Shown here one piece after another: positions 9,985 to 32,000 of a stretch of DNA of 32,000 bases. The translations under genes were made by a program, and so were the position numbers. The stretch is from assembly GCF_000223395.1 (NCBI RefSeq), contig NC_015931.1, positions 510,001-542,000 of the forward strand, written 5' to 3'. This DNA comes from Pyrolobus fumarii 1A (GTDB lineage: Archaea > Thermoproteota > Thermoprotei_A > Sulfolobales > Pyrodictiaceae). The notes beneath the pieces are model-generated. The model had not been told where the DNA came from. It ran no database searches and worked only from the letters and a program-made list of their open reading frames with translations. The stretch's first letter is position 1, and every line of letters starts with the position of its first letter.

Positions 9985-10039
9985 ACCGCGGCTCGCTCAT
10001 CCCTCTGGGGTCGCAGCCGGGCATGAGCAGGGGGTCTCC

Positions 10040-14973: not shown

Positions 14974-15312
14974 CTAGCTGCTCTCCTCGCTGCTAGCTAG
15001 CACCTTTACCAACGCCTCTATGACCGTGTCGCGGTCGACCTCATAGATACGCACGCGTTTCGTGGTGTCCCTAGTGCCGTACACCACCTCGACCCTAGAG
15101 GTTGGGATGTTTAGCAGCTGAGCAAGGTACCTCACTAGGTCTGCATTGGGCCTCCCAGCCACATCTGGTTCTACCGTGTGGAACACTAGGTCGTCTCCCT
15201 CGAGTACCAGCTTGGACTCGCGTTGCTCCGGCTTAACATACACTATGATGTCTACGTAGCCGGGGCCGTCATACACGTGCTTCTCGAGTATACTCCGGAT
15301 CTTCTCCTCCAT
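14974..15312 (-). CDS. DUF167 (YggU) family protein
   Basis: IIVYVKPEQRESKLV...GRPNADLVRYLAQLLNIPTSRVEVVYGTRDTTKRVRI matches the DUF167 pattern (..GKAN..L...LA..L.v....v.iv.G..sr.K.v.I). I prefer ATG 15312 (MEEKIRS) over the tracked 15387. Confidence 0.7.
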   Translation of the reverse strand: MEEKIRSILEKHVYDGPGYVDIIVYVKPEQRESKLVLEGDDLVFHTVEPDVAGRPNADLVRYLAQLLNIPTSRVEVVYGTRDTTKRVRIYEVDRDTVIEALVKVLASSEESS

Positions 15313-15399
15313 GCTCAAGCCCGGTCCCCTCTCTTGGAGACAGGACCCGGATTGGTTAAGTGTATGTGGGGCTCGGCCTGGCGGCAATAGGCGGGAAGC

Positions 15400-16122
15400 G
15401 TGGACACGTCACACACATCTTGGCTTCTGGCCGCGCTCCTCCAGGGGCTTCTAGAGTGGCTCCCCGTGAGTAGCAGTGGTGTTCTAGTGCTCCTCGGCCT
15501 ACCCTACCGGGAGGTTCTCGCCATACACCTTGCTACGAGCCTAGGCGGCCTGGTATACCTCGCGGCTAGGAGGAGTAAGCGGCTTCCAAGGCTGCTGATA
15601 GGATGGGGTCTCCTGCCGCTGGTGGCCGGCGCGCCAATAGCACTGATACTCGAGGATACCGCGGCCAGCCTCCCGCCAAGCACGCTAGAGACACTCACGC
15701 TTACACTCTACACTGTGACCCTCCTCGCCCTCCTAGCCCGTATAGCGGCTCGCACGAAGCACTCCAAGCCACGCATGGCGGATAGGCTCGTACTGGGTGT
15801 ATTCGAGGGCCTGGCTGTTCTACCCGGCGTCTCGAGGAGTGGCGTCACTGCGGCCTACCTCGCCGCTCGCGGCCTAGACCCCAGGATAGTCACGGACGCC
15901 GTGATAGCGTCTGGTGTCGTGGCTGGGGGCGCGGCGGGACTCTACGAGTTGCTAGCTCACGGGGCGGCAATGGACCCAATAATGTTCACTGTGACCCTCC
16001 TAGCGTCGATCGCCTCGGCATGGATCCTAAGCAGCATAGGCGAGAGGAGTGCAACGCTATTATCCATAGTGATAGTGGCTGGTATACTCGCGAGCATGGC
16101 GGCGCACCTGCTCCTAGTATAA
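15400..16122 (+). CDS. uppP: undecaprenyl/dolichyl-diphosphate phosphatase (BacA/UppP family)
   Basis: Polytopic membrane protein carrying the two family motifs EWLPVSSSG and PGVSRSG. Confidence 0.8.
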   Translation: MDTSHTSWLLAALLQGLLEWLPVSSSGVLVLLGLPYREVLAIHLATSLGGLVYLAARRSKRLPRLLIGWGLLPLVAGAPIALILEDTAASLPPSTLETLTLTLYTVTLLALLARIAARTKHSKPRMADRLVLGVFEGLAVLPGVSRSGVTAAYLAARGLDPRIVTDAVIASGVVAGGAAGLYELLAHGAAMDPIMFTVTLLASIASAWILSSIGERSATLLSIVIVAGILASMAAHLLLV

Positions 16123-16361
16123 GTGTCTCGCTGAACAGATCCGTTCACTCCCATTAAAGAACCAGTGGGGCAAGGGCTCCACCTAGACGATGTACGCGAG
16201 GTGCGCGTCATGCTAGCCGAGTTTGTTGAGTGCACGGTCCTCGCAATCGACACGCACGAGGAGACTGGCGACGCCGTCGTCCTCCTTGACTGTGGTACTT
16301 GTAGCCCAGCAGCATGGAAGAATTGAGGTAGGAGCGGCGCCGTACAAGACACCCCGGTGGT

Positions 16362-16868
16362 TTGTTGCAGAGCCTCATAGAGCAAGTGGAGAGTGTGGCC
16401 CGTAAAGCCGGTCTACGCGTCGAGGAGCCCCGGGGAGTCGCGCCACCCCCGGGCATGGAATGGGTGCGCGACATTATAGCCGAGGGGCCTGGTATCCGCG
16501 TGGTTGTGCGCGTAGCGGGCTCCGAGAGGGATAGGCGTCTAGTGCTCATAATGCCTATTGGCTTCTCCGAGGTGCACATGAGGCTCATTCAGGGGCTGCC
16601 CCTCGAGGAGAGGATGGCGCTTCTTGCTAGGCTGCTACGCGAGGTTATACACGTCTGCCCGTATTGCCGTGTTGGCGTAGGCGGGGCGCCTACAACACCC
16701 CAGGGCATTATAGCCGAGATACACTATGTGGATGGCGTGCCTGACTCGCAACGCCTACTAGACGACATAACGAGGCTGATAAGCGTCTTCATGGCTGTCA
16801 ACACGGTCCTTTGGGAGAGGTTCCCGGGTACCATGCCAGGCCACGAGAAGCCCCAGCTCTACACTTGA
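16362..16868 (+). CDS. hypothetical protein
   Basis: 168-aa ORF with TTG start after GGTGG and ordinary codon/amino-acid composition. It contains CPYC. I recognise no family. Confidence 0.5.
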   Translation: MLQSLIEQVESVARKAGLRVEEPRGVAPPPGMEWVRDIIAEGPGIRVVVRVAGSERDRRLVLIMPIGFSEVHMRLIQGLPLEERMALLARLLREVIHVCPYCRVGVGGAPTTPQGIIAEIHYVDGVPDSQRLLDDITRLISVFMAVNTVLWERFPGTMPGHEKPQLYT

Positions 16869-17014
16869 ACACCCAACCCATTACCCGGCTGGCGATTGTC
16901 CCTCTGCAAGCGGGGCCGATGAGGAGCCGTGTTTAAGCCGAGTGGTGGCGAGAGCCACGGCCGTGCCGAGGCCCGCCATAAACCCGCACGGGGCTGTAGA
17001 CGCTGGGGCACGTC

Positions 17015-17734
17015 GTGCTGCACCGTTACGCGTTCCTGGTCAAGAACTTGCGCGGGGTGCTGGCGGGGGCGCCCGCTGACAACCTGGAGGCTTACGTGCC
17101 ATGGCTATCTAGGAGGTTCCGCTATCGCGACCTCGGCGTACCCCCATGCATATTGAGGAGGGCGCCTAGCGTCTTCGAGGGTAGGCTGGGCGGCAACCCC
17201 TTCCACGAGCTGCACTACCCGACGGCTAGTGTCGAGCACGCCGCCCGGGAGATGGCTAACAGGCTATCGAGTGCTACTGGTCTAGACGAGTGTCTAGCTC
17301 ATTCCCTCCTGCTCGCCTCTGCGTACGCCTCGCCAGTCATAGCGCTGCCGGGCGCAGCGGCAGAGCTACTCAGCAGCAGAGTAGCGGTGCACATCGTGAA
17401 GGGGCCCGTGATGGACGCGCAGCAGGCGAGGTTACACCTCCGTATAGTCGACTATACAGTGCTGGACGCCTACATAGAGAGCATCGAGGAGGCGGTCGAG
17501 GCGATAGAGTCTGGCGGCGAGCCGTCCACGTTGAGGGAGAGGAGGCTCGAGAGGGCGCGGAGAGACGAGAAGCGCTACTGGAGGATAGCGGGCAAAGGCG
17601 ACAAGCCTGTCATAATATACCTTGACCATGTGTCGCCGCTGTTGGAGGGCGGGTATAGGCCTCCAACGGGGCCCGAGGAGAGAGTGCTACTCGCGCAGCT
17701 AGCCGTGTTCAACCTAGAGGCGGTAAGCGTCTAG
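17015..17734 (+). CDS. hypothetical protein
   Basis: 239-aa ORF with GTG start, protein-like composition and an acidic/basic coiled segment (EEAVEAIESGGEPSTLRERRLERARRDEKRYW). I recognise no family. Confidence 0.5.
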   Translation: MLHRYAFLVKNLRGVLAGAPADNLEAYVPWLSRRFRYRDLGVPPCILRRAPSVFEGRLGGNPFHELHYPTASVEHAAREMANRLSSATGLDECLAHSLLLASAYASPVIALPGAAAELLSSRVAVHIVKGPVMDAQQARLHLRIVDYTVLDAYIESIEEAVEAIESGGEPSTLRERRLERARRDEKRYWRIAGKGDKPVIIYLDHVSPLLEGGYRPPTGPEERVLLAQLAVFNLEAVSV

Positions 17735-17826
17735 GCGATAGTTACGCCCGCCACTCTACCAGTTCTACACTGGCTGGGTGTCAAGCCGCTTCGGGGAAAA
17801 CTGGGGGAGGCGGGACCGAAAGTGGT

Positions 17827-18201
17827 GTGCAGAGAATGGAAGCGCCGAGCATACCACTCCTGCTAGCCGCGTACACAGCGACGATAGTGCTACACGAGCT
17901 GATACACTACATTGTTGCTAGGCTGGCAGGTGTCGAGGGTCTACGTTTTGTCGTTGACGCGAAGCGCGGCGCGATAGGGTTTACGTATGAGAGGGCCACA
18001 CCGATGGCAATCCGCGTGGCTGCACTAGCGCCACAACTACTCACAGTCGTGTTGCTAGCGGTGTGGCTCGTAACGGGCGCGGTCGAGGCCCTCCTAACCG
18101 CCATTCTAAACATCGTGGGCAGTGTCAACGACCTCGCGAACAGTGTTAAACCCGTTATACCTGTGCCCGCAGAGCGTCTTGACGCGCCACGTCTAGACTA
18201 G
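17827..18201 (+). CDS. small membrane protein with HExxH zincin motif
   Basis: 124 aa with about 3 hydrophobic helices. HELIH is embedded at the end of helix 1 (TATIVLHELIHYIVARLAG). The start may instead be the ATG at 17836. Confidence 0.5.
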   Translation: MQRMEAPSIPLLLAAYTATIVLHELIHYIVARLAGVEGLRFVVDAKRGAIGFTYERATPMAIRVAALAPQLLTVVLLAVWLVTGAVEALLTAILNIVGSVNDLANSVKPVIPVPAERLDAPRLD

Positions 18202-18255
18202 CGCTCCCCGTATAGGCGGCTACCTTGGACTAATGACGTCGGGTGCTAGCTCAGC

Positions 18256-19458
18256 GTGCATGTAGGCCGATGGCCATTCGACGAGAAGCCTCTCCTGGTA
18301 TTCTGGGAGACTACGAAGGCGTGCCTCCTGGTCTGTAAGCACTGCAGGGCCAAGGCGATCAGGGAGCCTCTGCCCGGGGAGCTGGACACGAGGGAGGGCA
18401 AGAGGCTCATAGAGATGGTTGCAGAGTTTGGCAGGCCATACCCGATACTCGTGTTCACCGGCGGAGACCCCCTGATGCGCAAGGATGTATGGGAGCTTCT
18501 CGAGTACGCGAAGAGCCTTGGTCTACGCGTGGGCCTCGCACCCAGCATCACACCGCTATTGACACCAGAGAACATCAAGAGGATAGCAAGGGTGGTAGAC
18601 GCTGTCTCCATCAGCCTCGATGCGCCTAGCCCAGCGATCCACGACGCTATAAGGGGGTACGAGGGCATCTGGGGGAAGACAATCGAGGTTATCAAGAGGT
18701 TCATCGAGGAGGGTGTACGCGTACAAGTCAACACTGTTGTGTTGAGGGAGACCGCGCCACACTTAGCCGACATGGCCAAGCTACTCGTAGACCTGGGCGT
18801 CAAGACCTGGGAGGTGTTCTACCTGGTCCCCGTTGGCAGAGCCAACCTAGAGCTAATGCCCACGCCCAGCGAGTTCGAGGACGTCTCGCACTTCCTCTAT
18901 GAGGCTTCGAAGTACGGCATCCTAGTGAGGACGACAGAGGGCCCAATGTTCAGGAGGGTAGCGTGGACGCGGAGAGCCCTGGAGGAGAAGGGCCTCGACC
19001 CCGACGAGGTGTTGAAACCCGGCCCGTTGTACCAGAAGCTCGTCGCGAGGCTAAGGGAGCTGCTAGGAGAGCCTCGCGGCCAGCCTCTAGCCCAGACGGT
19101 GGGCACGAGGGACGGCAAAGGAATCATATTCATCGGGTATGATGGTCGCGTCTATCCAAGCGGGTTCATGGAGTACCACGTCGGCAGCATCAGGGAGAAG
19201 AGCCTAAAGGAGATCTACCAGGAGCATCCACTCCTCCGCAAGATACGCGCAGCGGAGTTCAAAGGAAGGTGCGGGCTCTGCGAGTTCCGCGACATATGCG
19301 GCGGTAGCCGCGCAAGAGCCTACCATGTCACCGGTGACCCTCTAGGCGAGGACCCAGCCTGCCCCTACCAGCCCGGAGAGTATACCAAACTCGCAGAGAA
19401 GCTATCACTACCGCTAAACCCGCCGCTAAAGCCCGTCCCCCGGCAACAAAAGGAGTAA
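18256..19458 (+). CDS. radical SAM enzyme with C-terminal SPASM domain (AhbD/NirJ/PqqE-like)
   Basis: CLLVCKHC is a CX3CX2C cluster, preceded by PLLVFWETTKA. A GGDPL SAM motif is present. The C-terminal CGLCEFRDICGGSRARAY...CPY is the Cys-rich auxiliary-cluster region. Confidence 0.85.
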   Translation: MHVGRWPFDEKPLLVFWETTKACLLVCKHCRAKAIREPLPGELDTREGKRLIEMVAEFGRPYPILVFTGGDPLMRKDVWELLEYAKSLGLRVGLAPSITPLLTPENIKRIARVVDAVSISLDAPSPAIHDAIRGYEGIWGKTIEVIKRFIEEGVRVQVNTVVLRETAPHLADMAKLLVDLGVKTWEVFYLVPVGRANLELMPTPSEFEDVSHFLYEASKYGILVRTTEGPMFRRVAWTRRALEEKGLDPDEVLKPGPLYQKLVARLRELLGEPRGQPLAQTVGTRDGKGIIFIGYDGRVYPSGFMEYHVGSIREKSLKEIYQEHPLLRKIRAAEFKGRCGLCEFRDICGGSRARAYHVTGDPLGEDPACPYQPGEYTKLAEKLSLPLNPPLKPVPRQQKE

Positions 19459-19532
19459 GACGATAGTAAGTAAGGCATGACACCCTAGCTATCATCGTCG
19501 AGTAGTCATGTAGTCCGGTGTCTAGCACCCTG

Positions 19533-19553
19533 CTTTTCTTAGGCGGGGTTTTC
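19533..19553 (+). terminator. oligo-T tracts after the radical SAM gene
   Basis: cttttctt at 19533-19540 and ggggttttcgg, 75-95 nt after the stop. An imperfect inverted repeat gacgatag...ctatcatcgtc (19459-19499) precedes them. Confidence 0.3.
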
Positions 19554-19577
19554 GGAGCGACGCGGGAGCAGTGAGAG

Positions 19578-21029
19578 TTGAGAATTGCTCGTGTTGTCGT
19601 AGCGCGTCTAGCGCTACGCGCCCTTGGACTCATACCACAGCTATTCGCTAGCATCGCGGTGGCCAGGAAGCTCGATGTAAACGAGTATGCGCTCTACCAG
19701 ACGATCAGTACGCGAGTCTCCACCTACTCTATGTTTGTTCCTCAGGTTCTGGGCTACTGGGCTTACAGGTACACGGTGCAGGGTATCCGCGGCTCACTCA
19801 AGATGTACCTCCTTGTGCTCCTCCTGGCAGCGTGTGGCGGCTTCCTACTGGCTTTTACCATGGCACGGCTAATGGGCGCTGATATACCAACGTCCCTCTT
19901 GCTCGCGGTAATGCTCTACTTTGTGGTTATTGTCAGGGGGTTAAGCCGTGTATTGGGCGGCGTTAGGCCGATACTTGCAGACGCAGCCGAGGTTTGCGGC
20001 AAGCTCCTCTACGTGTCCCTCATAGCGCTTTCAGTGTTCGTAATGGATGGTCTTGACGTACAGAAGGTGGCACTGTACCAGATAGCGGGGATTACGTTAA
20101 CCATCGTGATATTGACGCTAGAGACGCTCGTGGCGTATCTACGTGAGCCGCTGTGCACACGGTGCATTAGGGAGTGGGTTAGAGGCGCTTGGCTCCCATT
20201 TTTACGCCATGCATCAATGCTCTTAATCGCGATGGATGTTCTGGTCGTTCTGAACGTTATACGCGACTCGCATTACACGATAGCAGCGTTTATGGTAGTA
20301 AGTCTGGCGGCAAGGACTATCTCCTGGCTAGCTATCACCAGTGTTGCTCCGCTACACGCCTTTGTGCTAGAGACGAGCGACGTGATATCAGCGAACAATG
20401 TAAGCCGTATTATTCTAGTGCTTTTCGCGTTGTTTCTAGGCTATATAGCGGCTAGGCCGGAGCAGGTGGTTGCAATCTTTAACCCGGTGTACGTGCATGT
20501 CGCGGCGGCTGCTCAGCTTGTAGCGGCAGCGACCCTGGTAACGATAATGCTCAACATTGTTGACGGTATAATCCAGGGTATGGATAAGAGTACTGCCGTG
20601 AAGCCGGGTATGATTTTAAAAGCGTCATCACTGACCAGGATAGTATCTTCACTGGCCTATCTTGTCTTGCTCTATGCGTCGCTTTGCGTCGTAAACGATC
20701 AGGTAGAGGCTGTTTGGGCGTGGGCGGCTTCGCTTCTCGCGGCACGGGTGCTCAACATGATGCTAATAGCCTATGTTGCTAGGAGGTATGGCGTGTCGTT
20801 GAGCCTAGCGTCCCTAGCCTATCCTATCGCGTACTTTGTGATAGCGTGGCTCGTGGCGTCTATAGTAGCGCCGGTGGGCTACTCGCCACTAGCACTGCAA
20901 GACGCTATGCTCGTGTTGACGGGTGTTGTTTACACGGCGCCGGTGTACATCGTGCTGGTGATGCTGGTTGACCCTGGGCTTCGCAGTCTCGCTAGGCTCA
21001 CGGTAGAGAAGTATGTGCGGGTGAGGTAG
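19578..21029 (+). CDS. MOP/Wzx-type polysaccharide (oligosaccharide) flippase
   Basis: 483 aa with about 12-14 hydrophobic helices. The length and topology fit polysaccharide-biosynthesis flippases, and the gene is adjacent to a glycosyltransferase. Confidence 0.65.
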   Translation: MRIARVVVARLALRALGLIPQLFASIAVARKLDVNEYALYQTISTRVSTYSMFVPQVLGYWAYRYTVQGIRGSLKMYLLVLLLAACGGFLLAFTMARLMGADIPTSLLLAVMLYFVVIVRGLSRVLGGVRPILADAAEVCGKLLYVSLIALSVFVMDGLDVQKVALYQIAGITLTIVILTLETLVAYLREPLCTRCIREWVRGAWLPFLRHASMLLIAMDVLVVLNVIRDSHYTIAAFMVVSLAARTISWLAITSVAPLHAFVLETSDVISANNVSRIILVLFALFLGYIAARPEQVVAIFNPVYVHVAAAAQLVAAATLVTIMLNIVDGIIQGMDKSTAVKPGMILKASSLTRIVSSLAYLVLLYASLCVVNDQVEAVWAWAASLLAARVLNMMLIAYVARRYGVSLSLASLAYPIAYFVIAWLVASIVAPVGYSPLALQDAMLVLTGVVYTAPVYIVLVMLVDPGLRSLARLTVEKYVRVR

Positions 21030-23164: not shown

Positions 23165-26089
23165 GTGAGCACGGGTAGTGACGCTAAGCAGCTTGAGCTT
23201 ATCCGGGAGTCGCTGTACAGCCCGGAGGCCGAGGAGGAGGCGAAACGCCTCTTCCTCGAGGAGGTCTACAAGCAGGTTCGCTCCGCGTGGAGGCCGGTAG
23301 CACCCAACGGCGGGAGGCTAGCCGACCTCCCAGAGTGCGTGAGGAAAGGCGAGATATGCAAGGACGACGTGGGCCTCGCGTATAACGCGCTGCGTGTGCT
23401 GGCTGCCAGGTATATGACGCGCGACGAGACGGGCCGCTGGATGGAGACGCCCTCGATGGTGTTCCGGCGTGTGGCTGAGGGCCTAGGGAGGCGCACCAGC
23501 GTTGGCGTAGAGAGGCTCTATAGGCTGCTCGTCGAGGGTCGCTTCATGTTCAACTCTCCGACACTATTCAACATGTATTGTGACGGTGCGCGTGGGACTC
23601 TCAGCGCCTGCTACGTGACGCCCGTCTATGACTCGATGGATGGCATCATGGACGCTGCTAGGGTGCAAGCGCTCACCTTCAAGTGGGGTGGTGGCCAGGG
23701 CTTCTCCTTCTCCGAGCTAAGGCCAAGGTACGACATAGTGAGGGGTACTAGCGGCGTAGCCAGCGGACCCCTCAGCTTCATGAGGCTCTTCGACATGGTC
23801 ACGGAGGTCGTCAAGCAGGGTGGGAAGCGGAGAGGCGCCAACATGGGCATCCTCCACGCCTGGCACCCCGACATCTACAACCCGCACTTCGACCCGTGGG
23901 CAGCCCTCTACAACACGCTGCCGCCGCAAATCCGTGACCTGCTCAAAGCGTTCAAGAGGCTCATCGAGGAGCTGGAGGCGGAGGGGTACACGGTAGACCC
24001 CGAGGTCAAGAGGTGGGTTGCTTGGCTCGTCGAGGCCGGAGAGAAGAAGCCATGGGTGACCGTCGAGGAGGCGGGCTTCGTCCAGGCCAAGGAGCCGCCG
24101 CTCCAAGACACCAACCTCACAAACTTCAACATCAGCGTGGCGGCTAACGACGCGTTCATGAAGGCTGTGCTTGAGGACGGCGAATGGTGGATGGTGAACC
24201 CGAGGTTCTCGGAGGAGAATGGCGTCTACCGCCTCCACTACACCGTCAGCAGGGCGACTAACCCCAACGCCCCGGGCGTCAAGGCAGCCGAGGAGCTGCA
24301 ACACGAGAACCCGTACGTCGGCGTCTTCGAGGACATCCTCGAGAACGCGAAGAGACGTGCCCTGACCGCGCTGGAGGAGAGGAGGAGGGCGACTGGGTGG
24401 CCCACGAGCCCCGACGAGAAGAACCCGATAGTCTGGAGGACTAGGGCGCGCGACGTGTTCAAGAAGGCTGTGGAGAACGCGTGGGCTGGCGGCGACCCAG
24501 GCTTCATCTACATAGACAACCATAACAAGTGGCATCCGACGCCGTGGCTGGGCATGGTTAACGCCACTAACCCTTGTGGCGAGCAGCCGCTCTACCCCTT
24601 CGAGTCCTGCAACCTAGGCAGCGTTAACCTCGAGAAGTACGTGGTGTGTGAGGGAACGCGCTGCTACTTCGACCTAGAGGCGTTCGCGAGGGATGTTGCC
24701 GCTGCCACGGAGGCCCTAGACGCCGTGATAGACGCGAACAACCACCCGGACTGGAGGCAGAGGACTGCAAACCTCTTCACGCGGAAGGTGGGCCTAGGCT
24801 TCATGGGTCTTGCCTCGGCTCTCGCGAGGCTAGGCATACCCTACGATAGCGACGAGGGCGTAGCTTTCACGCTCGTGGCCACAGCCGCGCTCGAGGCGTT
24901 CTCCTGGAGGAGGAGTTGGGAGCTTGGCGCCGAGAAGGGACCGGCCCCAGCCTTCCGCTGCAAGAGGTACGACTGGGAGGGTATGGAGTGCGTCGAGGAG
25001 GCTAGCCCAGAGTGGACGCTGAGGCTCCATACCCCGGGCCTCCGCAAGGCTGGGATGGTCTCGGGGTTCGAAGAGGGCTGGCTAACGCTCCACTACCACA
25101 AAGTGAGTATCGACGAGTGGGGGTTCTCGCTCCTCCGGGGCGTTGCGCGGGAGAGGGTGCTCGCCACCGGCAAGGTTAGGCTGCTGCCAGCCGAGAAGCT
25201 CGAGAACATCGCTAAGAGCGTCTTTGGCTTCACCAGGGAGACTGCCGAGGAGGCGGCTAGGCTACCAGCCGCGAAGGTCGTGGAGGACCCGGTGCTGCTC
25301 ACGGCGCTAGCCGTCTACGACCCGGGCAGAGCCTGGGAGAAGCTCGTCGAGTACGGCAGGGGGGTCGGCGCCGAGGCGCCGAGGAACACCGTGACCACGA
25401 CAGTGGCGCCAACCGGCACCATAAGCATCATAGCGGGTACCAGCAGCGGCATCGAGCCATTCTTCGCCATAGTCTTCAAGCGTGTGGTCACCGTCGGCAC
25501 ATTCCTAGAGGTCGTGAGGCCGTTCCGCGACGCGCTACTAAAGCTAGCCGAGGAGACCGGCGCTACAAGGGAACACCTCAAGCTGGTCTATGAGGCTGTG
25601 AACTCCGCCAAGGGGAGCATCCGGAGGGCGCTTGCGGAGGGCCTCGCAGAGAGGCTGAGGAGCGCAGGTGCACCAGAAGAGTTCATAAGGGGACTCGAGG
25701 GGCTGGCGAGAGCATACCCATCGACGCATGACATCGACGTCTGGTGGCACGTGGCGCACCAGGCGGCTGCACAACTATACGTCGACCAAGCGATATCCAA
25801 GACCATTAACCTCGAGAGGGACACGCCCATAGAAGCGGCGTACACCGCGTTCATCCTAGGGTGGCTAGCCGGCCTCAAAGGCGTCACGATATTCAGGGAG
25901 GGTAGCAAGGCGGCCAGCGTCATACAGACGGGCAGCGGCAAGACAGCCGAGAGGAGGCTACTGAGGAGAAAGCGAAGGAGCATGAGGATGCAAGTGCCCA
26001 AGAAGAGAGCAGTTCTAACCGGCGAGGTCAAAGACGAAGTGATAGTAGACATGTTCACTGGCAGCGAGTGCAAGACCTGCGAGCTTTGA
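23165..26089 (+). CDS. nrdJ: ribonucleoside-diphosphate reductase, class II (adenosylcobalamin-dependent, NrdJ-type)
   Basis: 974 aa. Active-site motifs NPCGEQPL, SCNLGSVNL and TVAPTGTISIIAGTSSGIEPFF, plus a C-terminal Cys pair CKTCEL. There is no ATP-cone or class I tail. The conserved motifs are contiguous, so no intein. Confidence 0.85.
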   Translation: MSTGSDAKQLELIRESLYSPEAEEEAKRLFLEEVYKQVRSAWRPVAPNGGRLADLPECVRKGEICKDDVGLAYNALRVLAARYMTRDETGRWMETPSMVFRRVAEGLGRRTSVGVERLYRLLVEGRFMFNSPTLFNMYCDGARGTLSACYVTPVYDSMDGIMDAARVQALTFKWGGGQGFSFSELRPRYDIVRGTSGVASGPLSFMRLFDMVTEVVKQGGKRRGANMGILHAWHPDIYNPHFDPWAALYNTLPPQIRDLLKAFKRLIEELEAEGYTVDPEVKRWVAWLVEAGEKKPWVTVEEAGFVQAKEPPLQDTNLTNFNISVAANDAFMKAVLEDGEWWMVNPRFSEENGVYRLHYTVSRATNPNAPGVKAAEELQHENPYVGVFEDILENAKRRALTALEERRRATGWPTSPDEKNPIVWRTRARDVFKKAVENAWAGGDPGFIYIDNHNKWHPTPWLGMVNATNPCGEQPLYPFESCNLGSVNLEKYVVCEGTRCYFDLEAFARDVAAATEALDAVIDANNHPDWRQRTANLFTRKVGLGFMGLASALARLGIPYDSDEGVAFTLVATAALEAFSWRRSWELGAEKGPAPAFRCKRYDWEGMECVEEASPEWTLRLHTPGLRKAGMVSGFEEGWLTLHYHKVSIDEWGFSLLRGVARERVLATGKVRLLPAEKLENIAKSVFGFTRETAEEAARLPAAKVVEDPVLLTALAVYDPGRAWEKLVEYGRGVGAEAPRNTVTTTVAPTGTISIIAGTSSGIEPFFAIVFKRVVTVGTFLEVVRPFRDALLKLAEETGATREHLKLVYEAVNSAKGSIRRALAEGLAERLRSAGAPEEFIRGLEGLARAYPSTHDIDVWWHVAHQAAAQLYVDQAISKTINLERDTPIEAAYTAFILGWLAGLKGVTIFREGSKAASVIQTGSGKTAERRLLRRKRRSMRMQVPKKRAVLTGEVKDEVIVDMFTGSECKTCEL

Positions 26090-26092
26090 AAA

Positions 26093-26536
26093 CTATTCCT
26101 TTTCTCGCTTTTCACTCCTAGACCGTAAAGCTATGCCCCCATAGCTAGTCCTCTTCCAACGGATAGCCTTTGCCCTCAACTCCTTCCAAAACCCATCGTC
26201 ATACACGACAATACCATGATCAAGAGCATCTATAACGTCGAGCCTCGGGTTTCTCAATGCAGCTTCAACAACTTCCTCTGGCGTGTAACACCAGGGTTCT
26301 ATTGGCAGCTTACCTCGGTACAACTTGTACACGAGAAACTCGCGCTCGTAGAAGGGCTGGCCCCGGAAACACTCTGCAACAACAAGAATGTCTATGTCGC
26401 TCTCGCGTAGCTGTTCGCCGCGAGCCCAGCTGCCAAAGAGTATAAGGGCGCGGAGACCGAGACGAACACGAAGTATTCTCGCAAGTTTTGAAAGCTCGTC
26501 TATCACGTCTTGGATGCTAGGAGTTTTTTCACCCAC
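26093..26536 (-). CDS. MNT-type nucleotidyltransferase (HEPN-MNT module partner)
   Basis: ILFGSWARGEQLRESDIDILVV matches the GSxxRG...SDxD pol-beta NTase motif. It overlaps the upstream HEPN gene by 34 nt. It ends 3 nt from the convergent RNR stop. Confidence 0.85.
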   Translation of the reverse strand: MGEKTPSIQDVIDELSKLARILRVRLGLRALILFGSWARGEQLRESDIDILVVAECFRGQPFYEREFLVYKLYRGKLPIEPWCYTPEEVVEAALRNPRLDVIDALDHGIVVYDDGFWKELRAKAIRWKRTSYGGIALRSRSEKREKE

Positions 26537-26907
26537 TTTACCACCCTCTCAGCCAGGTTCACAAGCTGAGATGATATACGAGCCGAGTAAACCTCCATAG
26601 GCACGCCGTTAGCCGCATCAGGGTAACGAGCAACACGATAGTGAGGATTGAGCATCCGGAGGGCATCCATTATATCCTCGTCATCCACGCCTAGTATAGA
26701 GGCTAGCCGCACCAGGTTATGCGTCTTGGGAGGAAGTTCACCCCGTAGAGCTATAATAGCCGCTTTCAACGCCTTCTCTGCAGCCTGATGCGCGTGAAAC
26801 GCTGCTGCCGCATACCTCCCCGCCCCAAGGAGAACCTTGGCGTCCAGAAGATCGTCCTCCGCGGCTCTCAGCCACTCCTCAGCCTCAGGGCGCAAAAGGA
26901 CACCCAC
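26503..26907 (-). CDS. HEPN-domain protein
   Basis: WLRAAEDDLLDAKVLL..GRYAAAAFHAHQAAEKALKAAI...KTHNL..L......LNPHYRVARYPD is the classical HEPN pattern. GTG start. Confidence 0.85.
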   Translation of the reverse strand: MGVLLRPEAEEWLRAAEDDLLDAKVLLGAGRYAAAAFHAHQAAEKALKAAIIALRGELPPKTHNLVRLASILGVDDEDIMDALRMLNPHYRVARYPDAANGVPMEVYSARISSQLVNLAERVVKWVKKLLASKT

Positions 26908-26920
26908 CCATCAAAAACAC

Positions 26921-26936
26921 GCGTCTCGCAAGACGC
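26921..26936. promoter_or_regulatory. inverted repeat in the divergent HEPN / pilin-like promoter region
   Basis: gcgtct-cgca-agacgc (6-bp stem) lies 14 nt upstream of the HEPN start. TATA-like ttaaaa (26978-26983) and ttatactttt (26987-26996) lie further on, towards the GTG at 27037. Confidence 0.3.
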
Positions 26937-27036
26937 TAGTATTCTTCTCAAGTTGTTTACTCCAAGCGGAGACACCATTAAAACCGTTATACTTTTGCAT
27001 GGCTAGCCCCTAACAATAGGCCATTAGGGTGATAGG

Positions 27037-27717
27037 GTGAACCGCCATGACAAGAGTCTACGCTCACAAGCGGAACCCATAGCTGTAATCATGCTTACCG
27101 TTGTCGGGCTTGCCATAGCGCTCATGGCCTGGGGGTGGCTCAACGCCAGCCTCGGACCCGTGTCGAGACAAGCGCTTCTAACCGAGTACCTTGCGTTGGA
27201 GCGTAGCAGAGAGTTTGCCAACCTCCTGGCTAGCGGTGTAGACGCTGCAACAGGATACAAAGAGTATGTTGTCGAGCTTATGCACACCGTTGTAACCCAC
27301 CGCAAGTGGTTCGCCTTCATACTACTAGTCAACAACCCGGAGAGCGACACGCTAGTCGACACGGTGCTAACCGAGCAGCTCAACCAGGCTATAGGCACCA
27401 ACGTTAAGGTGTATCTCCTCCAGCCGTTCAGCGGAAGCTACGTGAGGAACGCCACACCAGTCGAGACGATAACAGTCCAGCCAGGGGACGTGATACTCGC
27501 CGATGGGCGCGACCTGAGCATATTCGGGCTCAACACTTCGATCATCGTGATCCGCGTCCCGGAGTACTACAGTGGGGTCGGCGACCCGACACCACAAGCT
27601 ATTATCGACATACTTGTCGACCCCGCGTTGCTCCCGGACACTTCACGCCTCGTGCTCGTCACGCTCACACTGTACGACAACAAGTGGTATGAAGTGACGA
27701 GACTGATACTACCTTAA
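27037..27717 (+). CDS. pilin-like protein with class III (prepilin-type) signal peptide
   Basis: The N-terminus MNRHDKSLRS|QAEPIAVIMLTVVGLAIALMAWGWL is a short charged leader, then LRSQ, then a single about 22-residue hydrophobic helix. The rest is beta-rich. Sequons NAS, NAT and NTS. GTG start after GGTGA. Confidence 0.6.
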   Translation: MNRHDKSLRSQAEPIAVIMLTVVGLAIALMAWGWLNASLGPVSRQALLTEYLALERSREFANLLASGVDAATGYKEYVVELMHTVVTHRKWFAFILLVNNPESDTLVDTVLTEQLNQAIGTNVKVYLLQPFSGSYVRNATPVETITVQPGDVILADGRDLSIFGLNTSIIVIRVPEYYSGVGDPTPQAIIDILVDPALLPDTSRLVLVTLTLYDNKWYEVTRLILP

Positions 27718-27756
27718 AATGCGGGGTTTAGCGGGATAACAAGATGGGAATAGTTA

Positions 27757-30558
27757 ATGAACTCCATGCTTAGGAGCCAGGGCGTACTCATCGGCGGCGT
27801 TATACTACTAATGCTGCTCGTGGCCGTCGTACTCCCGCTAATACTCCGTCTAAACACCACAGCAGCCATGATAGGCGAGAGTGTCAGGCTAGCATCGCAG
27901 GTCAAAATGCAAGCGATGAAGGAGAAAGTACAAGTTGCGTTCAAGTACAACGACACGTACACCGGCATACTGGTGAACAACACCGGCACGGTAAAGGTCA
28001 TCATAGAGAAGGTTATCATACTAAACTTGACAACGGGCCAGCCGATATCAGACCCGCTGATATGCGGCGAGAACGGCGGAATATGCGGTATCATAAACAT
28101 AGCAGACGCGGACAAGAACCCACTAGTGTCGTTCGCGGCGCCCTTCATCGACAATTGTAAAGTCGGTATACTACGGAGAGGCAAGTATAGCCCCGCAACA
28201 CTAGACTGTCTCGACGGCACGAATCGCGTTGCAGTGCTAGAACCCGGCGACGTGCTATTCGTGAGCATCGACCCGGCGATACTCCCACTCCTGATAAACA
28301 AGACAGTGATATACGCGGAGTCTGCATACGGCGTTATCCACCCAGTCGTCTCACCGCCCCCAAGGCCAGGAGCAGGGGGAGCTGGACTACCCGTACCCTC
28401 CTCTGCCATACCGAGAGGCCTCTACACCCCGATAACCGGGTTCATACTGTGGGGCTACGAGGATCTCATCAACTACACGTACGTGCAGGCGATGCGGCCC
28501 CCGTACAGGATATCCACGATAGGGCCGCACCCAGACATTAGCGTGCTGGGCGAGTACGACAATGGTCAGAGGCTATACTGTGGCGGTGTACCATTCTACA
28601 CTGCAGGCTTCTCGGTCGATTATAACGAGCATCTAGGCACCTATAGAATCACGTTCACCGTTTCAAGCATATGCTGGTTCCGAGACTGCTACCTATACGT
28701 GTATACCGCGTATGGGGGCACGCCAGGATGGCTCGCTATAAGACTGTGGCCAAACCGCGTATACACCATAGTAGGTTACGTGGGTGCCATTGGGCTTATG
28801 AGCCCCGAGCAAGTATTGACTAGAAGAGCCGCCGTGGTATACTGCCCGTTTGGCACCGACGCGCAGCTTTTGATACTCGATGGATGGGCCTACCAGATAC
28901 TCGAGAACGGCAAACCTCTGGATATCGGCCAGCCAGCCTACCTGCCGTACCCGCAGAGCCTCAGCGAGTTGACAGCCTCGGGTGGCGTGTCGGAAAGCGA
29001 TGTTGACGAGAACAATATAACAGAGTTGAAGGTGTCGACGTTCAAGTACGGCATAACATGGGATGCTCTAGATGCTGATGGCTCGAGCAGCAGCATGTAC
29101 TCCTACTATGTTGACGAGGAGTACGCATACAGCGACGACGTTGTAGTCTACAACATCACGCTGCTCCGAGACATAACCGGTGTTGACGCGATACAAGTAG
29201 CTGTTAAGGCCACACTCCGGTACAACTACCTGCTATTCACGGACTTCACGCCAGACCCGATGGCATACATATCCAAGCCGATCATCGCCGTCGCGTTGCT
29301 AAAACTAGACCGGAAGACGTACAAGTGGAGAATCGTGAACATGGAGACGAAGGAGTTTAGCATAGGCATGCCGAAAACATTCTGGATAAACGTGATGTTC
29401 CCCGTGAACTCTAGCGATGTCTATAGAATCGCCATATACGTGTATGACCCTTACGGCCTTCTCAACATAGGTACGGACGCTGTACACGGTTGGTGCGAGA
29501 CACCCGTAGCAACACGCAGAGGCAGCGTAAGCTGCTCGAGCTATTACACTTTCATGAGCACTATAGAGACGAAGCTGCACATCGAGCATATAATAGTTCA
29601 GTACTACGTGTATAACCCGCTGCTTAGGAAGATACCGGCAGTCTACCTCGTCAACATAACTGGTGTGCCCTACTGGCCGAGTGGCGTCAACACAGCGTAT
29701 GGTACCTTCGGTGTGATCAACGAGACTATGCTTAGCGACTACTGGTCGTGGCTACTGGAGTACATGCATAGGCTCGGCATATACCCGATAATCGTCAACA
29801 ACTGGGACGAGTTCAAAGTGCTACTTGGGAGCCCGGATGCACCCGTCGATGCAATCGTGATCTTCATGCACGGCCCGATACTGCCATTCAAGTACGGTAT
29901 AAGCCTCTACGACCCATCGGTAGACGACTACGTGACGATATACTCGCCTTACCAGTTCGAACAGTGGCTCGCCCACATGATCCAGGAGCGCGGCTGGATA
30001 GTGGTATTCCCCTATGGCCCGCCGCTAGCCTTCGTATGGGACACCGACGCAAACACCTACTATAACGGCCCCAACGCGTTCATAAGCGGCGGGCTACTCG
30101 ACGACTTCGTTGAACAGCTCATAGGCACTGTCGTTGACGTGAGCTACCTATTCGTCTATGTGGGCGGCTTCGAGTATAACGTGAAAGGTGAGACTTACAC
30201 ACTCAGCAACTACACTGTCGGTATTGGCGACCTTGGCGTGACAGCCACAAGGTCATTGAGGGTATGGGCTGCACCGAGAGTGTTCACAGGCAACTATACC
30301 ATAGCGTCTAGGAGCCTAGAGCTCTACCAGGCCGTGCAACCCTACTATCTCAACGAGACGCCTCCCGACGGGCTCTCGTGGAGCAAGCTAAACGTGCCAA
30401 CCGGCGGCTATGCGCTCGGCGCTGGCTTCATACAGTCGGGTAGGGGTGCAGCCGTCTTCATAACCGCGCCGAGGCCCGGCGTACTAGACCCACTGAGGCT
30501 AGCAGCGCTAGACGTAGCACTGAGCGTATACACGTGGAAGCTCATGGTAGGAGGCTAG
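27757..30558 (+). CDS. giant (933 aa) pilin-like surface glycoprotein with class III-type signal peptide
   Basis: MNSMLRS|QGVLIGGVILLMLLVAVVLPLIL has the same LRSQ + helix signature as the upstream gene. An about 170-aa beta-rich N-domain has 4 Cys. A Pro/Gly linker VSPPPRPGAGGAGLPVPSS (nt about 28348-28410) follows, then an about 715-aa Tyr-rich region. I count about 14 N-x-S/T sequons by eye. The start is 39 nt after the previous gene. Confidence 0.65.
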   Translation: MNSMLRSQGVLIGGVILLMLLVAVVLPLILRLNTTAAMIGESVRLASQVKMQAMKEKVQVAFKYNDTYTGILVNNTGTVKVIIEKVIILNLTTGQPISDPLICGENGGICGIINIADADKNPLVSFAAPFIDNCKVGILRRGKYSPATLDCLDGTNRVAVLEPGDVLFVSIDPAILPLLINKTVIYAESAYGVIHPVVSPPPRPGAGGAGLPVPSSAIPRGLYTPITGFILWGYEDLINYTYVQAMRPPYRISTIGPHPDISVLGEYDNGQRLYCGGVPFYTAGFSVDYNEHLGTYRITFTVSSICWFRDCYLYVYTAYGGTPGWLAIRLWPNRVYTIVGYVGAIGLMSPEQVLTRRAAVVYCPFGTDAQLLILDGWAYQILENGKPLDIGQPAYLPYPQSLSELTASGGVSESDVDENNITELKVSTFKYGITWDALDADGSSSSMYSYYVDEEYAYSDDVVVYNITLLRDITGVDAIQVAVKATLRYNYLLFTDFTPDPMAYISKPIIAVALLKLDRKTYKWRIVNMETKEFSIGMPKTFWINVMFPVNSSDVYRIAIYVYDPYGLLNIGTDAVHGWCETPVATRRGSVSCSSYYTFMSTIETKLHIEHIIVQYYVYNPLLRKIPAVYLVNITGVPYWPSGVNTAYGTFGVINETMLSDYWSWLLEYMHRLGIYPIIVNNWDEFKVLLGSPDAPVDAIVIFMHGPILPFKYGISLYDPSVDDYVTIYSPYQFEQWLAHMIQERGWIVVFPYGPPLAFVWDTDANTYYNGPNAFISGGLLDDFVEQLIGTVVDVSYLFVYVGGFEYNVKGETYTLSNYTVGIGDLGVTATRSLRVWAAPRVFTGNYTIASRSLELYQAVQPYYLNETPPDGLSWSKLNVPTGGYALGAGFIQSGRGAAVFITAPRPGVLDPLRLAALDVALSVYTWKLMVGG

Positions 30559-30597
30559 CATAGTTTGTCTCAACAACTCATAACTCATAGCCAGATA

Positions 30598-30604
30598 TTT
30601 TCTT
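30598..30604 (+). terminator. oligo-T terminator candidate for the pilin-like operon
   Basis: ttttctt lies 40 nt after the stop, preceded by the tandem aactcat-aactcat (30575-30588). Confidence 0.35.
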
Positions 30605-30747
30605 CATAACCTTGTCAGCGGGTGGCGCATTCCAGCAATATCCGGGTGGCCATAGCCCCGAGCGCACACAGCTATACGTGACCCCAATCCCAGTGTAACG
30701 ATGTGTTTTTACCGACTCTATGGCTTTGTGAGCGAATTGTGTTCGAT

Positions 30748-30820
30748 GGGGCGGGAGGACCCCGTCTCATCCACCCCCATGCGGGGGTGTTGCCGGGGTC
30801 CCACCCCTGGCCCGGGCCCC
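30748..30820. other. GC-rich multi-hairpin element (candidate ncRNA)
   Basis: Three consecutive hairpins: GGGG-N8-CCCC (30748-30763); cacccccATGCgggggtg with a 7-bp stem (30772-30789); GGGG-tccca-CCCC (30795-30807). The palindrome ggcccgggcc follows (30809-30818). T5 lies upstream (30706-30710) and T4 downstream (about 30861-30864). The element sits in a 520-bp stretch with no credible ORF. Confidence 0.3.
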
Positions 30821-31080
30821 AAGTAGTATGTTAGGGTTCTACCCGGGTCCAGTATCTTGTTTTAGGCGAAACTAGCTGCCTCCTCTATATGGTAAACGGA
30901 GACGCTGTACTCTTGATACCTTGTGGTGTACGAGGAGCGTTTCTACCGGTGTATGAGCGAGCGTTCCGCGCTGCGCCAGTGGATGTAGAGATGCTTGATG
31001 TGTATATGCTATTCTGGCTGGTATTATTGGTAATGCCGGGTCTATCTAGATGTTGGCGTGTAGTGGAGTGGAAGCGGGTC

Positions 31081-31734
31081 CTACCCGTATCGTGTTACGG
31101 GTCTTAGTATGGGTATTGTAATGCTCCGTATGAGGTTTGCTGGCAGGAGTGGCGCTAGAGGCTGGATGAGTGGTAAACGTGGCTTTTCTGTCCGCGTTGT
31201 TATCCACGCCTCGACCCTATCTATTAGGCGTTCGACGTTCGCTATCATCGCTTGGAGGGTTTCCGGCGGGTGGCCAGGATCGTAGTAGTTGTTGTGGAGG
31301 GCTTCTGCGACGCCAAACTCGCTCCGTATGTCGAGGCCTTCGCGGTATAACTCAGCTACTATGATGCGTAGCGCTTGATGACTTTTGGCCTCGATCCCCC
31401 AGGCGGCAATAGCCGCCGCGTTTATTGCGTCGATGGTAGCCCTCCATGCTTCCTCCCCGGCCTCATCGCCGAGTCCCTCGGCTAGAAGCCTCCAGGCTTT
31501 GGCCAGCCGGGCTCTTGCTCGTGCCAACCTTGTGCCCCAGCCACTGCTCGCCGCATCCACATCCCTGCGTCCACGGAGCCTAGGCGGTAGTGCGGTGGTT
31601 GAGATTTTTACGAGCATCTCTACGGATGGTAGAAGTAGTCTTACATACGCGCTTACACTGCTAACGGAGGAGCGTAGAAGGGCATCCGTAAAGAGACTAT
31701 AGTCGCCCTTCGGCCTCTCGCGCATAGCGTGCAC
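31081..31734 (-). CDS. PaREP1-like (HEPN-like) helical protein
   Basis: GEEAWRATIDAINAAAIAAWGIEAKSHQALRIIVAELYREG.....AEALHNNYYDPGHPP parallels the PaREP1 core seen at 2120-2340 and 5690-5930. The start is GTG 31734 or ATG 31725, with the TATA-like cctataca about 25 nt upstream. A hairpin acccgta-N6-tacgggt sits at its 3' end (31083-31102). Confidence 0.55.
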   Translation of the reverse strand: MHAMRERPKGDYSLFTDALLRSSVSSVSAYVRLLLPSVEMLVKISTTALPPRLRGRRDVDAASSGWGTRLARARARLAKAWRLLAEGLGDEAGEEAWRATIDAINAAAIAAWGIEAKSHQALRIIVAELYREGLDIRSEFGVAEALHNNYYDPGHPPETLQAMIANVERLIDRVEAWITTRTEKPRLPLIQPLAPLLPANLIRSITIPILRPVTRYG

Positions 31735-31802
31735 CCTCGTGTATAGGGGAGCCGCCCAGATACACCACGGTGTCTAGGCATCCGGTTAAAGACTTGAACA
31801 GG

Positions 31803-31808
31803 TATAAA
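31803..31808 (+). promoter_or_regulatory. TATA box (tataaa) for the window-edge gene
   Basis: ggtataaagc lies 34-39 nt upstream of the ATG at 31842. Confidence 0.4.
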
Positions 31809-31841
31809 GCGCTGTAAAACTCTGCCCGTTCGTGGATAGCG

Positions 31842-32000
31842 ATGACGGGTTACCAGATACGCGTGGAGGATATTGTAAGTGCGCTACGCGCCCATATAGA
31901 GGTTTTAGAGAGGATAGTCGAGCTTCAGATAGAGTTCCTCGAGAAACACGGTGACGTTATAACCATACTCTCCAACGTTAGAAACCTCGAGAAGTACGTC
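31842..32000 (+). CDS. hypothetical protein, 5' fragment (runs off the window)
   Basis: An ATG at 31842 opens a frame that stays open to the window end (MTGYQIRVEDIVSALRAHIEVLERIVELQIEFLEKHGDVITILSNVRNLEKYV). It is helical and protein-like and has a good TATA box. It is absent from the ORF track because it is truncated. Confidence 0.4.
   Translation, partial: MTGYQIRVEDIVSALRAHIEVLERIVELQIEFLEKHGDVITILSNVRNLEKYV

Follow-up and report, generated by a model that had tools for sequence, protein, structure and literature searches.

A co-inherited pair of predicted type IV pilin-like proteins, one small and one large, in Pyrolobus fumarii and other Desulfurococcales-type archaea

The gene pair, its N-termini and its relatives

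Archaeal genomes typically encode 20–50 predicted prepilin-peptidase substrates, most of them without a known role (PMC4371748), and 26 are predicted in Pyrodictium delaneyi (PMC8105010). We analyzed two adjacent genes, Pyrfu_0582 and Pyrfu_0583, at 27037–30558 of a 32,000-nt stretch of the Pyrolobus fumarii 1A genome (NC_015931.1, positions 510,001 to 542,000 of the forward strand); "the window" means this whole stretch, and positions are counted from its first nucleotide. An earlier reading of the sequence without database searches (the sequence-only reading) had described the two genes as an orphan cassette of prepilin-like proteins, the second of them unusually large. Both open reading frames (ORFs) were real and had the layout described: they start with GTG and ATG, respectively, and their products are 100% identical to the annotated proteins of P. 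fumarii 1A (Table 1). A Shine-Dalgarno-like GGTGA at 27028–27032 was seen by inspection 4 nt ahead of the GTG start of Pyrfu_0582. The TATA-like stretch farther upstream was likewise called from the sequence, a bacterial-type promoter scan being uninformative for an archaeon. The short same-strand spacer is consistent with co-transcription of the two genes; spacers in relatives with tandem genes ranged from ~100 nt to an overlap of stop and start codons. Both proteins lack a Pfam family and are annotated only as "hypothetical protein", and we found no mention of Pyrfu_0582, Pyrfu_0583 or APE_0898 (see below) in the literature searched.

Table 1. Features of the Pyrfu_0582–Pyrfu_0583 locus (positions in the window; the arrow marks the predicted cleavage site)
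Feature	Position	Strand	Basis and remarks
Upstream intergenic region	26908–27036	+	TATA-like A/T-rich stretch at ~26977–26995, seen in sequence
Small pilin-like gene Pyrfu_0582	27037–27717	+	ORF, 226 aa
Predicted class III signal peptide, small protein	27037–27150	+	Motif conservation; cleavage predicted
Leader of small protein (aa 1–10)	27037–27066	+	Predicted cleavage S10↓Q11, Q codon 27067–27069; hydrophobic helix aa 11–38
Spacer between Pyrfu_0582 and Pyrfu_0583	27718–27756	+	39 nt; both genes on the same strand
Large modular pilin-like gene Pyrfu_0583	27757–30558	+	ORF, 933 aa
Predicted class III signal peptide, large protein	27757–27849	+	Motif conservation; cleavage predicted
Leader of large protein (aa 1–7)	from 27757	+	Predicted cleavage S7↓Q8, Q codon 27778–27780; hydrophobic helix aa 8–31
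Pilin-like head, large protein (aa 8–198)	27778–28350	+	Pilin profile matches below cut-off; weak structure matches
Pro/Gly-rich linker, large protein (aa 199–216, SPPPRPGAGGAGLPVPSS)	28351–28404	+	Sequence
Middle module, mainly beta-strand (aa ~217–620), fold unmatched	28405–29616	+	Family alignment A6
D-x-D-x-N-x-x-x-E loop (D415, D417, N419, E423), candidate Ca2+ site	28999–29025	+	Family alignment
C-terminal module (aa ~621–933), alternating strands and helices	29617–30555	+	Alignment A6; low-confidence model

The small protein begins with MNRHDKSLRS↓QAEPIAVIMLTVVGLAIAL and the large protein with MNSMLRS↓QGVLIGGVILLMLLVAVVL. In both, a short basic leader ending in [K/R]-[G/A/S] is followed by ~20 hydrophobic residues. 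Strong hydrophobicity is confined to one N-terminal segment in each protein; in the large protein, one further isolated 19-residue window at residue 167 barely reached the hydrophobicity cut-off. When a simple class III rule was applied to the 125 window ORFs of at least 60 aa, three were flagged, namely, Pyrfu_0582, Pyrfu_0583 and a spurious antisense ORF within the ribonucleotide reductase gene.

The sequence-only reading had based its class III assignment on the leader, the tetrapeptide LRSQ and the hydrophobic helix, all of which were present in both proteins, but the identical LRSQ proved peculiar to P. fumarii. The feature conserved across the two families is [K/R]-[G/A/S]↓Q. Among 50 distinct N-termini of the large family, Gln at +1, G/A/S at -1 and Gly at +7 were invariant (50/50 each), R/K occupied -2 in 48, Ile occupied +5 in 48 and Glu occupied +3 in 40, Pyrfu_0583 itself not having this Glu. 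In the small family, G/A/S was found at -1 in 29 of 29 N-termini, Gln at +1 in 27 and R/K at -2 in 22. Two Desulfurococcaceae members of the small family start with the canonical KG↓ISPV rather than with Gln at +1, and thus the small family grades into ordinary PibD-type pilins. Conservation of the N-termini in orthologues, on which the sequence-only reading had made its proposal depend, was found in all orthologues and distant relatives retrieved, even where overall identity was merely 13–26%. Judged from these residues, the large-family N-terminus is a textbook class III signal.

If the N-terminal helices instead stayed uncleaved and served as type II membrane anchors, both proteins would be ordinary tethered surface glycoproteins with no link to filament machinery. 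The absence of a curated pilin model matched above threshold, of machinery genes near the P. fumarii pair and of an enriched ATPase adjacency (all described below) is what such anchors would predict. However, conservation of the motif far exceeds that of the remaining sequence, which speaks against a plain membrane anchor: the Gln after G/A/S and R/K sits right at the helix start in families that have otherwise diverged widely, pilin homology reaches ~60 residues past the motif, and two lineages have a common locus architecture with pilins and an ATPase. We therefore regard plain anchoring as improbable.

The Gln at +1 had further suggested an analogy with DUF361-type pilins processed by EppA. 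In the EppA-processed EpdA–E of Methanococcus (DUF361), Gln at +1 follows [K/R][G/A], as in the sites KGQV and RAQI (PMC4371748). However, the count for EppA (arCOG02300) is 0 in P. fumarii and all listed Desulfurococcales in a literature table (PMC4858521 Table S1), and the analogy therefore fails. Further, neither protein matched a Pfam class III or DUF361 model, and the conserved Glu of the large family is at +3, not at +5. The likeness to the Epd proteins is thus confined to the +1 residue, and an EppA/DUF361-type pilin was ruled out.

When 5.8 billion proteins were searched, the large protein had three close homologues (45–49% identity), which sit on single or few contigs, and the small protein had six (52–66%). 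A profile search of 1.84 billion representative proteins yielded ~20 full-length relatives of the large protein with lengths of 576–963 aa (most 700–960 aa) and E values of 1e-61 to 1e-21, one of which is APE_0898.1 of Aeropyrum pernix, as well as shorter proteins sharing the head only. A word-index protein search with the family profile returned just the four close homologues. Distant members of the large family align with Pyrfu_0583 end to end at 22–26% identity. The small family is 13–24% identical between clades, and its signal, length and C-terminal NNKYY strand are retained. A scan with a 9-sequence alignment, covering one genome per species, added 27 loci in Acidilobaceae, Aeropyrum, Thermodiscus, Pyrodictiaceae and other Desulfurococcales bins.

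In 39 of 43 locus/window records, which include many duplicate views of the same pair, a hidden Markov model (HMM) of the small family detected a member as the immediate upstream neighbour of the large gene. Of the four exceptions, two are contigs without upstream DNA, one (L029) was not examined and one (L032) truly lacks a partner there. The HMM found no small-family gene without a large partner in these records. At the loci of close relatives, the small gene directly precedes the large one wherever the DNA suffices, and the flanking genes vary from locus to locus. The Pyrodictiaceae-like group and a few others have the two genes in tandem; in Acidilobaceae they are divergent and share an upstream region of 100–270 nt. 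We conclude from these comparisons of sequence and gene order that the small and large genes are a co-inherited unit, and that the pair is a conserved, previously undescribed module of Desulfurococcales-type archaea.

Several loci showed further peculiarities. A trio of genes for a B-block_TFIIIC-like regulator, a DHH-family protein and an M29 peptidase lies ~16 kb from the P. fumarii cassette (window 7630–11176), and the same trio lies 4–7 kb downstream of the orthologous pair on a related contig from a metagenome-assembled genome (MAG; L001, 16395–20049); the arrangement is a vestige of common synteny that rearrangement has since altered. In another MAG locus (L003), the large gene is split into 2593–4587 and 4615–5451 (664 and 278 aa) with ~30 residues absent between the parts, which could reflect a frameshift, an assembly error or a pseudogene. 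In A. pernix, a gene for an AAA_5/MoxR-like ATPase precedes the pair (L010, 6672–9075); as a candidate partner of the pair it was dropped because it is not conserved in the other loci. The length of the called gene that follows it is not a multiple of three, with 28 stops if read through; either the gene is frameshifted or its annotation is at fault.

Architecture of the two proteins

The AlphaFold2 model of the small protein (7-sequence alignment) had a mean pLDDT of 84.3 and a pTM of 0.74. It consists of a helix at residues 12–58, kinked at the conserved Pro41, and a beta-sandwich of 10 strands. When the small-family profile was compared with the PDB, the best sequence matches were archaeal type IV pilins, aligned from the signal peptide on: 8fjs (a Pilin_N protein, E 0.008), 8tib, 7txi (a flagellin) and 9myg. 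From the model, we infer that Pyrfu_0582 is a conventional pilin of the helix-plus-beta-sandwich type.

The same layout is suggested for the head of the large protein. As the sequence-only reading had described, an N-terminal domain of ~170 aa with four Cys precedes a Pro/Gly linker at about residues 199–216. The Cys residues (C103, C110, C134 and C151) are conserved and lie on a Pyrodictiaceae-specific insertion that is missing from other clades. Comparison of the large head with the small family by hhalign gave a probability of 94% and an E value of 1.5e-7 over the first 62 columns, which comprise the signal and the alpha-1 helix. Among NCBIfam models, UpsB matched the heads of all six close orthologues (best E 1.7e-6), BasB matched five of the six (best E 1.3e-5) and UpsA three; these matches span head residues ~15–92, i.e., the alpha-1 helix and the first strands with an NNTG motif. 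In the wider large family, the UpsB model was matched below cut-off by 5 of 18 members. The pilin of Pyrobaculum calidifontis (PDB 8fk7) was the sole pilin among four weak sequence matches of the large-family profile (rank 2, E 0.59), and in Foldseek it ranked first for the large-protein model (E 0.041, probability 0.99, TM 0.47 on the target; low-confidence model). That model, built from a 4-sequence alignment, has a pLDDT of 39 and a helix-then-beta layout in the head. Thus, the structure prediction proposed earlier gave a confident helix plus beta-sandwich for the small protein but an unreliable model for the large one. The profile and structure searches did return archaeal pilins, namely, 8fk7, UpsB, BasB, UpsA and the matches of the small family, but no curated pilin model was passed above its cut-off.

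The known proteins closest to the head differ from Pyrfu_0583 in size and setting. UpsA/UpsB and BasA/B/C of Sulfolobales (NF046074, NF046073 and NF053670), which supplied the best sub-threshold matches, are crenarchaeal PibD substrates of 126–136 aa (model lengths) with I/L at +1, and their genes lie beside UpsEF or BasEF; in contrast, Pyrfu_0583 has >700 extra residues after the head, and +1 is always Gln in its family. The P. calidifontis type IV pilus subunit (8fk7; PMC10334743) shares the helix-then-beta-sandwich head, a weak likeness that comes partly from a low-confidence model, but is a filament-forming major subunit of 136–144 aa without cargo.

A low-complexity G/P/A linker is found in the same position across the large family (alignment A6). 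Beyond it, the Tyr-rich extension of ~715 aa with ~14 N-glycosylation sequons noted by the sequence-only reading was borne out. Tyr makes up 9.1% and aromatic residues 15.5% of Pyrfu_0583 residues 219–933. N-x-S/T sequons number 14 in the large protein, compared with 4.6 +/- 1.9 in shuffled sequences (0 of 2000 shuffles reached 14), and the sequon counts of cytoplasmic neighbours equalled the shuffle expectation. This enrichment reads as an extracellular signature of the large protein.

Strong sequon enrichment would also suit an S-layer or extracellular matrix component, in which a large lattice protein is held by a small anchor, as in SlaA and SlaB, and the hydrophobic N-terminus is incidental. 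In the S-layer of Sulfolobales, the SlaA and SlaB genes lie side by side, and anchors of the SlaB type are C-terminal. The adjoining genes for a large and a small glycoprotein in P. fumarii recall this arrangement, and one member of the large family had a very weak RsaA_NTD match (E 0.069). However, it is the large protein, rather than the small one, that carries the pilin-type anchor, and both proteins would be anchored at the N-terminus. Further, only three close large-protein orthologues were found among 5.8 billion proteins, a count that is silent on expression, and PDB sequence searches revealed no similarity of the large protein to any solved S-layer structure. We consider an S-layer or matrix role highly improbable.

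Residues ~217–933 gave no Pfam, NCBIfam or PDB sequence match, and the C-terminal ~700 residues may hold a new fold. In the middle module, over which the AlphaFold2 model is unreliable, the conserved motifs are WRGxFxPxSGFxLxGY, DPEYPG, GFxGTY, RDITGxD, FPVNRxxIYR and EHxIV; those of the C-terminal module are PxVY[IL]VAI, PPKxAI[VI]IxLxG and GW[IV]xV (alignment A6). The D-x-D-x-N-x-x-x-E loop of the middle module is invariant or nearly so in 18 diverse family members and, from the type of motif, is a candidate Ca2+ site. One large-family member had a weak FG-GAP match (E 0.003). The small partners in Acidilobaceae (L010, L012, L013, L017, L020 and L025; alignment A8, columns 150–175) have an insertion with DxDxDGxx[D/E]L, which is absent from Pyrfu_0582 and resembles the DxDxNGxxE loop of the large protein; by their sequence, these loops may be a matched pair of Ca2+ sites.

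Cargo regions also vary within the family. In one relative (P0024), a 170-aa insertion in the C-terminal module matched PA14 domains in the PDB (6qe7, E 3.9e-4); Pfam did not detect it and the PDB matches were marginal, and we keep it as a hint. In the group P0031–P0038, the same head is joined to quite different C-termini, one of which has two DUF2341 domains. These features correspond to the concept of modular type IV pilins, in which a pilin module is connected through a short linker to an extra module that is not pilus-specific (Raynaud et al., 2021, PMC8179133). That definition originally used the bacterial motif IPR012902, which is not applicable to archaea; its other elements were all found in Pyrfu_0583, namely, a head (aa 8–198), a linker (aa 199–216), a cargo of ~715 aa and the recurrence of the head with other modules.

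Assembly machinery and possible roles

In agreement with the sequence-only reading, no assembly ATPase, platform protein or prepilin peptidase was found among the scanned ORFs of the window. The word "orphan", however, applies to the cassette in P. fumarii and not to the family, in which the pair lies beside canonical pilins and a type IV pilus ATPase in two lineages. At locus L014, a canonical short pilin, present as its C-terminal part, is followed by the small gene, the large gene and, after 127 nt, a convergent gene for a T2SSE ATPase (4245–7298, minus strand, 1017 aa), which contains an intein with a LAGLIDADG homing-endonuclease domain and has a weak C-terminal PilB3_C match. At locus L031, the small and large genes are followed by two canonical pilins of 139–146 aa, an ATPase and then a TadC-like ORF. 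The ATPases of the two loci are orthologous (E 7.5e-194), and their short pilins are 42% identical. L031 also encodes a secreted protein of 1331 aa that appears protease-like by eye (4874–8869, minus strand) and a surface protein of 1512 aa that has numerous beta-domain repeats and is anchored in the membrane at its C-terminus (15265–19803, minus strand), which may be further surface components of the same cluster.

According to a published survey table, P. fumarii has four FlaI-type ATPases, one short FlaK/PibD-type peptidase (arCOG02298 = 1) and no archaellum (PMC4858521 Table S1). Therefore, a processing enzyme and candidate assembly machines are encoded elsewhere in the genome. Such separation is not unusual, as archaeal pilins are commonly unlinked from their assembly machinery (PMC4371748).

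Several results weigh against a pilin-like nature of the two proteins or their link to a filament. No Pfam or NCBIfam pilin model was passed above cut-off by either protein or family: the UpsB, BasB and UpsA matches scored 18–30 bits against curated cut-offs of 70–230 bits, and the small family had neither a Pfam pilin match nor an NCBIfam match. The globular part of the small protein matched only generic beta-sandwiches in Foldseek (p53 core, reelin-N and adhesin domains; TM 0.3–0.45), which is no evidence either way on its pilin identity, and for the fold of the large-protein head the signals are weak and the model is poor. A Pfam scan of the ~30 larger window ORFs, smaller and overlapping ORFs being left out, detected no T2SSE ATPase, T2SSF/TadC protein or A24 peptidase, and none was present among the gene calls of the 10 kb further downstream (L042); in P. 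fumarii, such machinery is thus absent within 27 kb upstream and 10 kb downstream. An ATPase was nearby in 2 of 37 non-redundant loci, compared with 0.65–0.8 expected by chance (P ~0.14–0.19). Three of the four parts of PMC4858521 Table S1 were covered, and their pilus-associated arCOGs do not include the pair; in the available part of the Makarova 2016 supplement, neither the coordinates of the A. pernix genes nor an arCOG with a matching presence pattern was found. Finally, P. fumarii is described as non-motile, and its genome paper is silent on pili (PMC3156397). Since ATPase adjacency is not above chance, it was dropped as a statistical argument, and the argument for a pilus link comes from the architecture shared by L014 and L031, not from frequency.

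On the other side stand the conserved motif, the small-protein model and the sub-threshold profile and PDB matches. On these grounds, we accept both proteins as type IV pilin-like, that is, as predicted class III substrates that pass no curated model. Further, we consider it probable, with moderate confidence, that Pyrfu_0582 and Pyrfu_0583 are a co-inherited pair of surface proteins of the type IV pilin-like kind.

In such a pair, both proteins would be inserted through Sec by their N-terminal signals, and the single FlaK/PibD-type peptidase would cut just ahead of the invariant Gln, as the motif suggests. Through their alpha-1 helices, the proteins would then become part of a type IV filament or a short pseudopilus. 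Its assembly would fall to an unlinked FlaI/TadC machine, which would be one of the four FlaI-type ATPase/TadC systems encoded elsewhere in the genome; the arrangements of L014 and L031 are consistent with this step. The two proteins would act jointly and probably make up a minor-pilin complex that sits at the filament tip or where the filament starts, because the genes are strictly paired and because of the analogy with PilA–PilC of Streptococcus sanguinis and GspK of the type II secretion system (T2SS). The large protein would display its glycosylated cargo of ~715 residues beyond an UpsB-like head and a Pro/Gly linker, possibly for adhesion or ligand capture.

We compared the pair with bacterial modular minor pilins, namely, PilB (vWA module) and PilA–PilC (lectin module) of S. 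sanguinis, CofB, and GspK of the T2SS (PMC8179133; PMC9934059). Like these, the P. fumarii pair combines a small pilin module with a class III signal, a short linker and a bulky cargo, the head is reused with different cargoes, and a gene for a small pilin-like partner lies alongside. A location at the filament tip has been proposed for the bacterial proteins and would apply to the P. fumarii pair by analogy. In contrast to the bacterial proteins, the pair is archaeal, has no sequence relation to them, lacks the IPR012902 N-methylation motif and has the cleavage site [K/R][G/A/S]↓Q; its cargo has no recognisable domain, and its genes are usually unlinked from machinery. It is a tentative possibility that the pair is the first archaeal counterpart of the bacterial tip minor-pilin complex, i.e., a heterodimer that primes or caps a filament, with a Ca2+-stabilised, glycan-covered adhesion module of ~700 residues and a new fold, and with the UpsB-like head as a portable carrier fused to several cargoes.

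A different arrangement is suggested by the bindosome of Sulfolobales. Large archaeal proteins with class III signals are already a known class, which includes sugar-binding proteins of Sulfolobales (preprint 10.64898/2026.04.22.720090); the bindosome substrates GlcS, AraS and TreS, together with ~4,364 candidates in other archaea, are glycoproteins of >500 aa with a pilin-type N-terminus, and, like the P. fumarii pair, they are encoded apart from their ATPase and platform genes (same preprint). By analogy, the PibD-processed pair would use its pilin helices only to assemble into a short stub or an oligomer near the membrane, within the 40-nm quasi-periplasmic space of P. fumarii, and would hold a large binding or enzyme module at the cell surface. 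That space and the silence of the genome paper on pili (PMC3156397) suit this arrangement, as do the matches of the BasB model to five of six heads, the distance of most loci, including that of P. fumarii, from ATPase/TadC genes and the alternating strand/helix pattern of the C-terminal module, which was seen in a low-confidence model. However, bindosome substrates have solute-binding domains and lie in ABC-transporter operons, whereas the P. fumarii family has neither and has a small pilin-like neighbour instead. No solute-binding Pfam or NCBIfam domain was found in 18 members, and no ABC transporter adjoins the pair in the loci whose neighbours were listed (the ABC genes of the window are 25 kb off); a solute-binding protein was thus ruled out. 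In addition, the pair lies beside canonical filament-type short pilins in L014 and L031. Taken by itself, bindosome-like anchoring is rather unlikely in our estimate; within the favoured general model, a tip complex and a bindosome-like surface stub are about equally likely. The absence of a solute-binding domain, the obligate small pilin partner and the portable head set the P. fumarii family apart from the known class.

Two hypothetical proteins now represent a defined family pair of Pyrodictiaceae, Aeropyrum/Acidilobaceae and other Desulfurococcales-type lineages. Such proteins would not come as a surprise to specialists, but the family is well defined and widespread in vent hyperthermophiles, its members being nearly all from metagenome bins, several of which are named after vent samples. 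Its anatomy is clear (class III signal, pilin head, linker and large cargo), and at two loci the pair is linked with canonical pilins and a pilus ATPase. Should a filament indeed carry the large protein, modular pilins would occur in Archaea as well as in Bacteria, and the pair would hint at how cells growing above 100 °C attach to minerals or to each other. Since the cultivable A. pernix carries the pair (APE_0898.1 and its divergent neighbour of 270 aa), this idea is testable.

Base composition and flanking genes

The sequence-only reading had described the locus as visibly lower in GC than its surroundings. The GC content was 54.2% in the cassette, 58.8% in the window and 53.9% in the stretch 26090–32000; the mean of the P. 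fumarii genome is 54.9% (PMC3156397). The cassette is thus close to the genome mean, and it is the upstream genes that are unusually GC-rich. The third-position GC content (GC3) was 80% in the gene for the 974-aa ribonucleotide reductase (23165–26089, plus strand) and 67–68% in the cassette, and the apparent GC step is therefore due to the GC-rich ribonucleotide reductase gene and not to the cassette. A low-GC island or horizontal transfer of the cassette was ruled out, as its GC content equals the genome mean.

The flanks named by the sequence-only reading, a HEPN/MNT module and a PaREP1-like gene, were recovered by the Pfam scan. Upstream of the cassette, genes for an MNT-type nucleotidyltransferase and a HEPN protein (26093–26536 and 26503–26907, both on the minus strand) overlap by 34 nt (HEPN, E 2.2e-30; NTP_transf_2, E 6.9e-10; MntA-like, E 1.3e-6) and are a typical HEPN/MNT toxin-antitoxin pair. 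PaREP1-family genes lie at 5477–6136 (plus strand) and 31081–31734 (minus strand) of the window, and more lie at 9066–15205 of L042. They are unusually dense: the window holds two, and the 7 kb that follow the cassette hold five in total, four of them in addition to those of the window. The cassette thus borders a PaREP1-rich stretch. Between the cassette and the downstream PaREP1 gene, a very GC-rich intergenic stretch (30740–30830) has two strong hairpins; those at 30745–30790 folded no better than shuffled sequences (z -1.3 and -1.9). Rfam and tRNA scans of the whole window gave no match.

Farther from the cassette, three separate PIN-domain ORFs (2537–2947, minus strand; 12977–13405 and 14539–14961, plus strand) probably encode VapC-like toxins. 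Three sizeable plus-strand ORFs of the window had no Pfam match (9022–9984, 17015–17734 and 19578–21029; 320, 239 and 483 aa, respectively). Around the 483-aa ORF, which lies just upstream of a glycosyltransferase gene, the sequence is locally low in GC and rich in T (~53% GC, AT skew -0.18).

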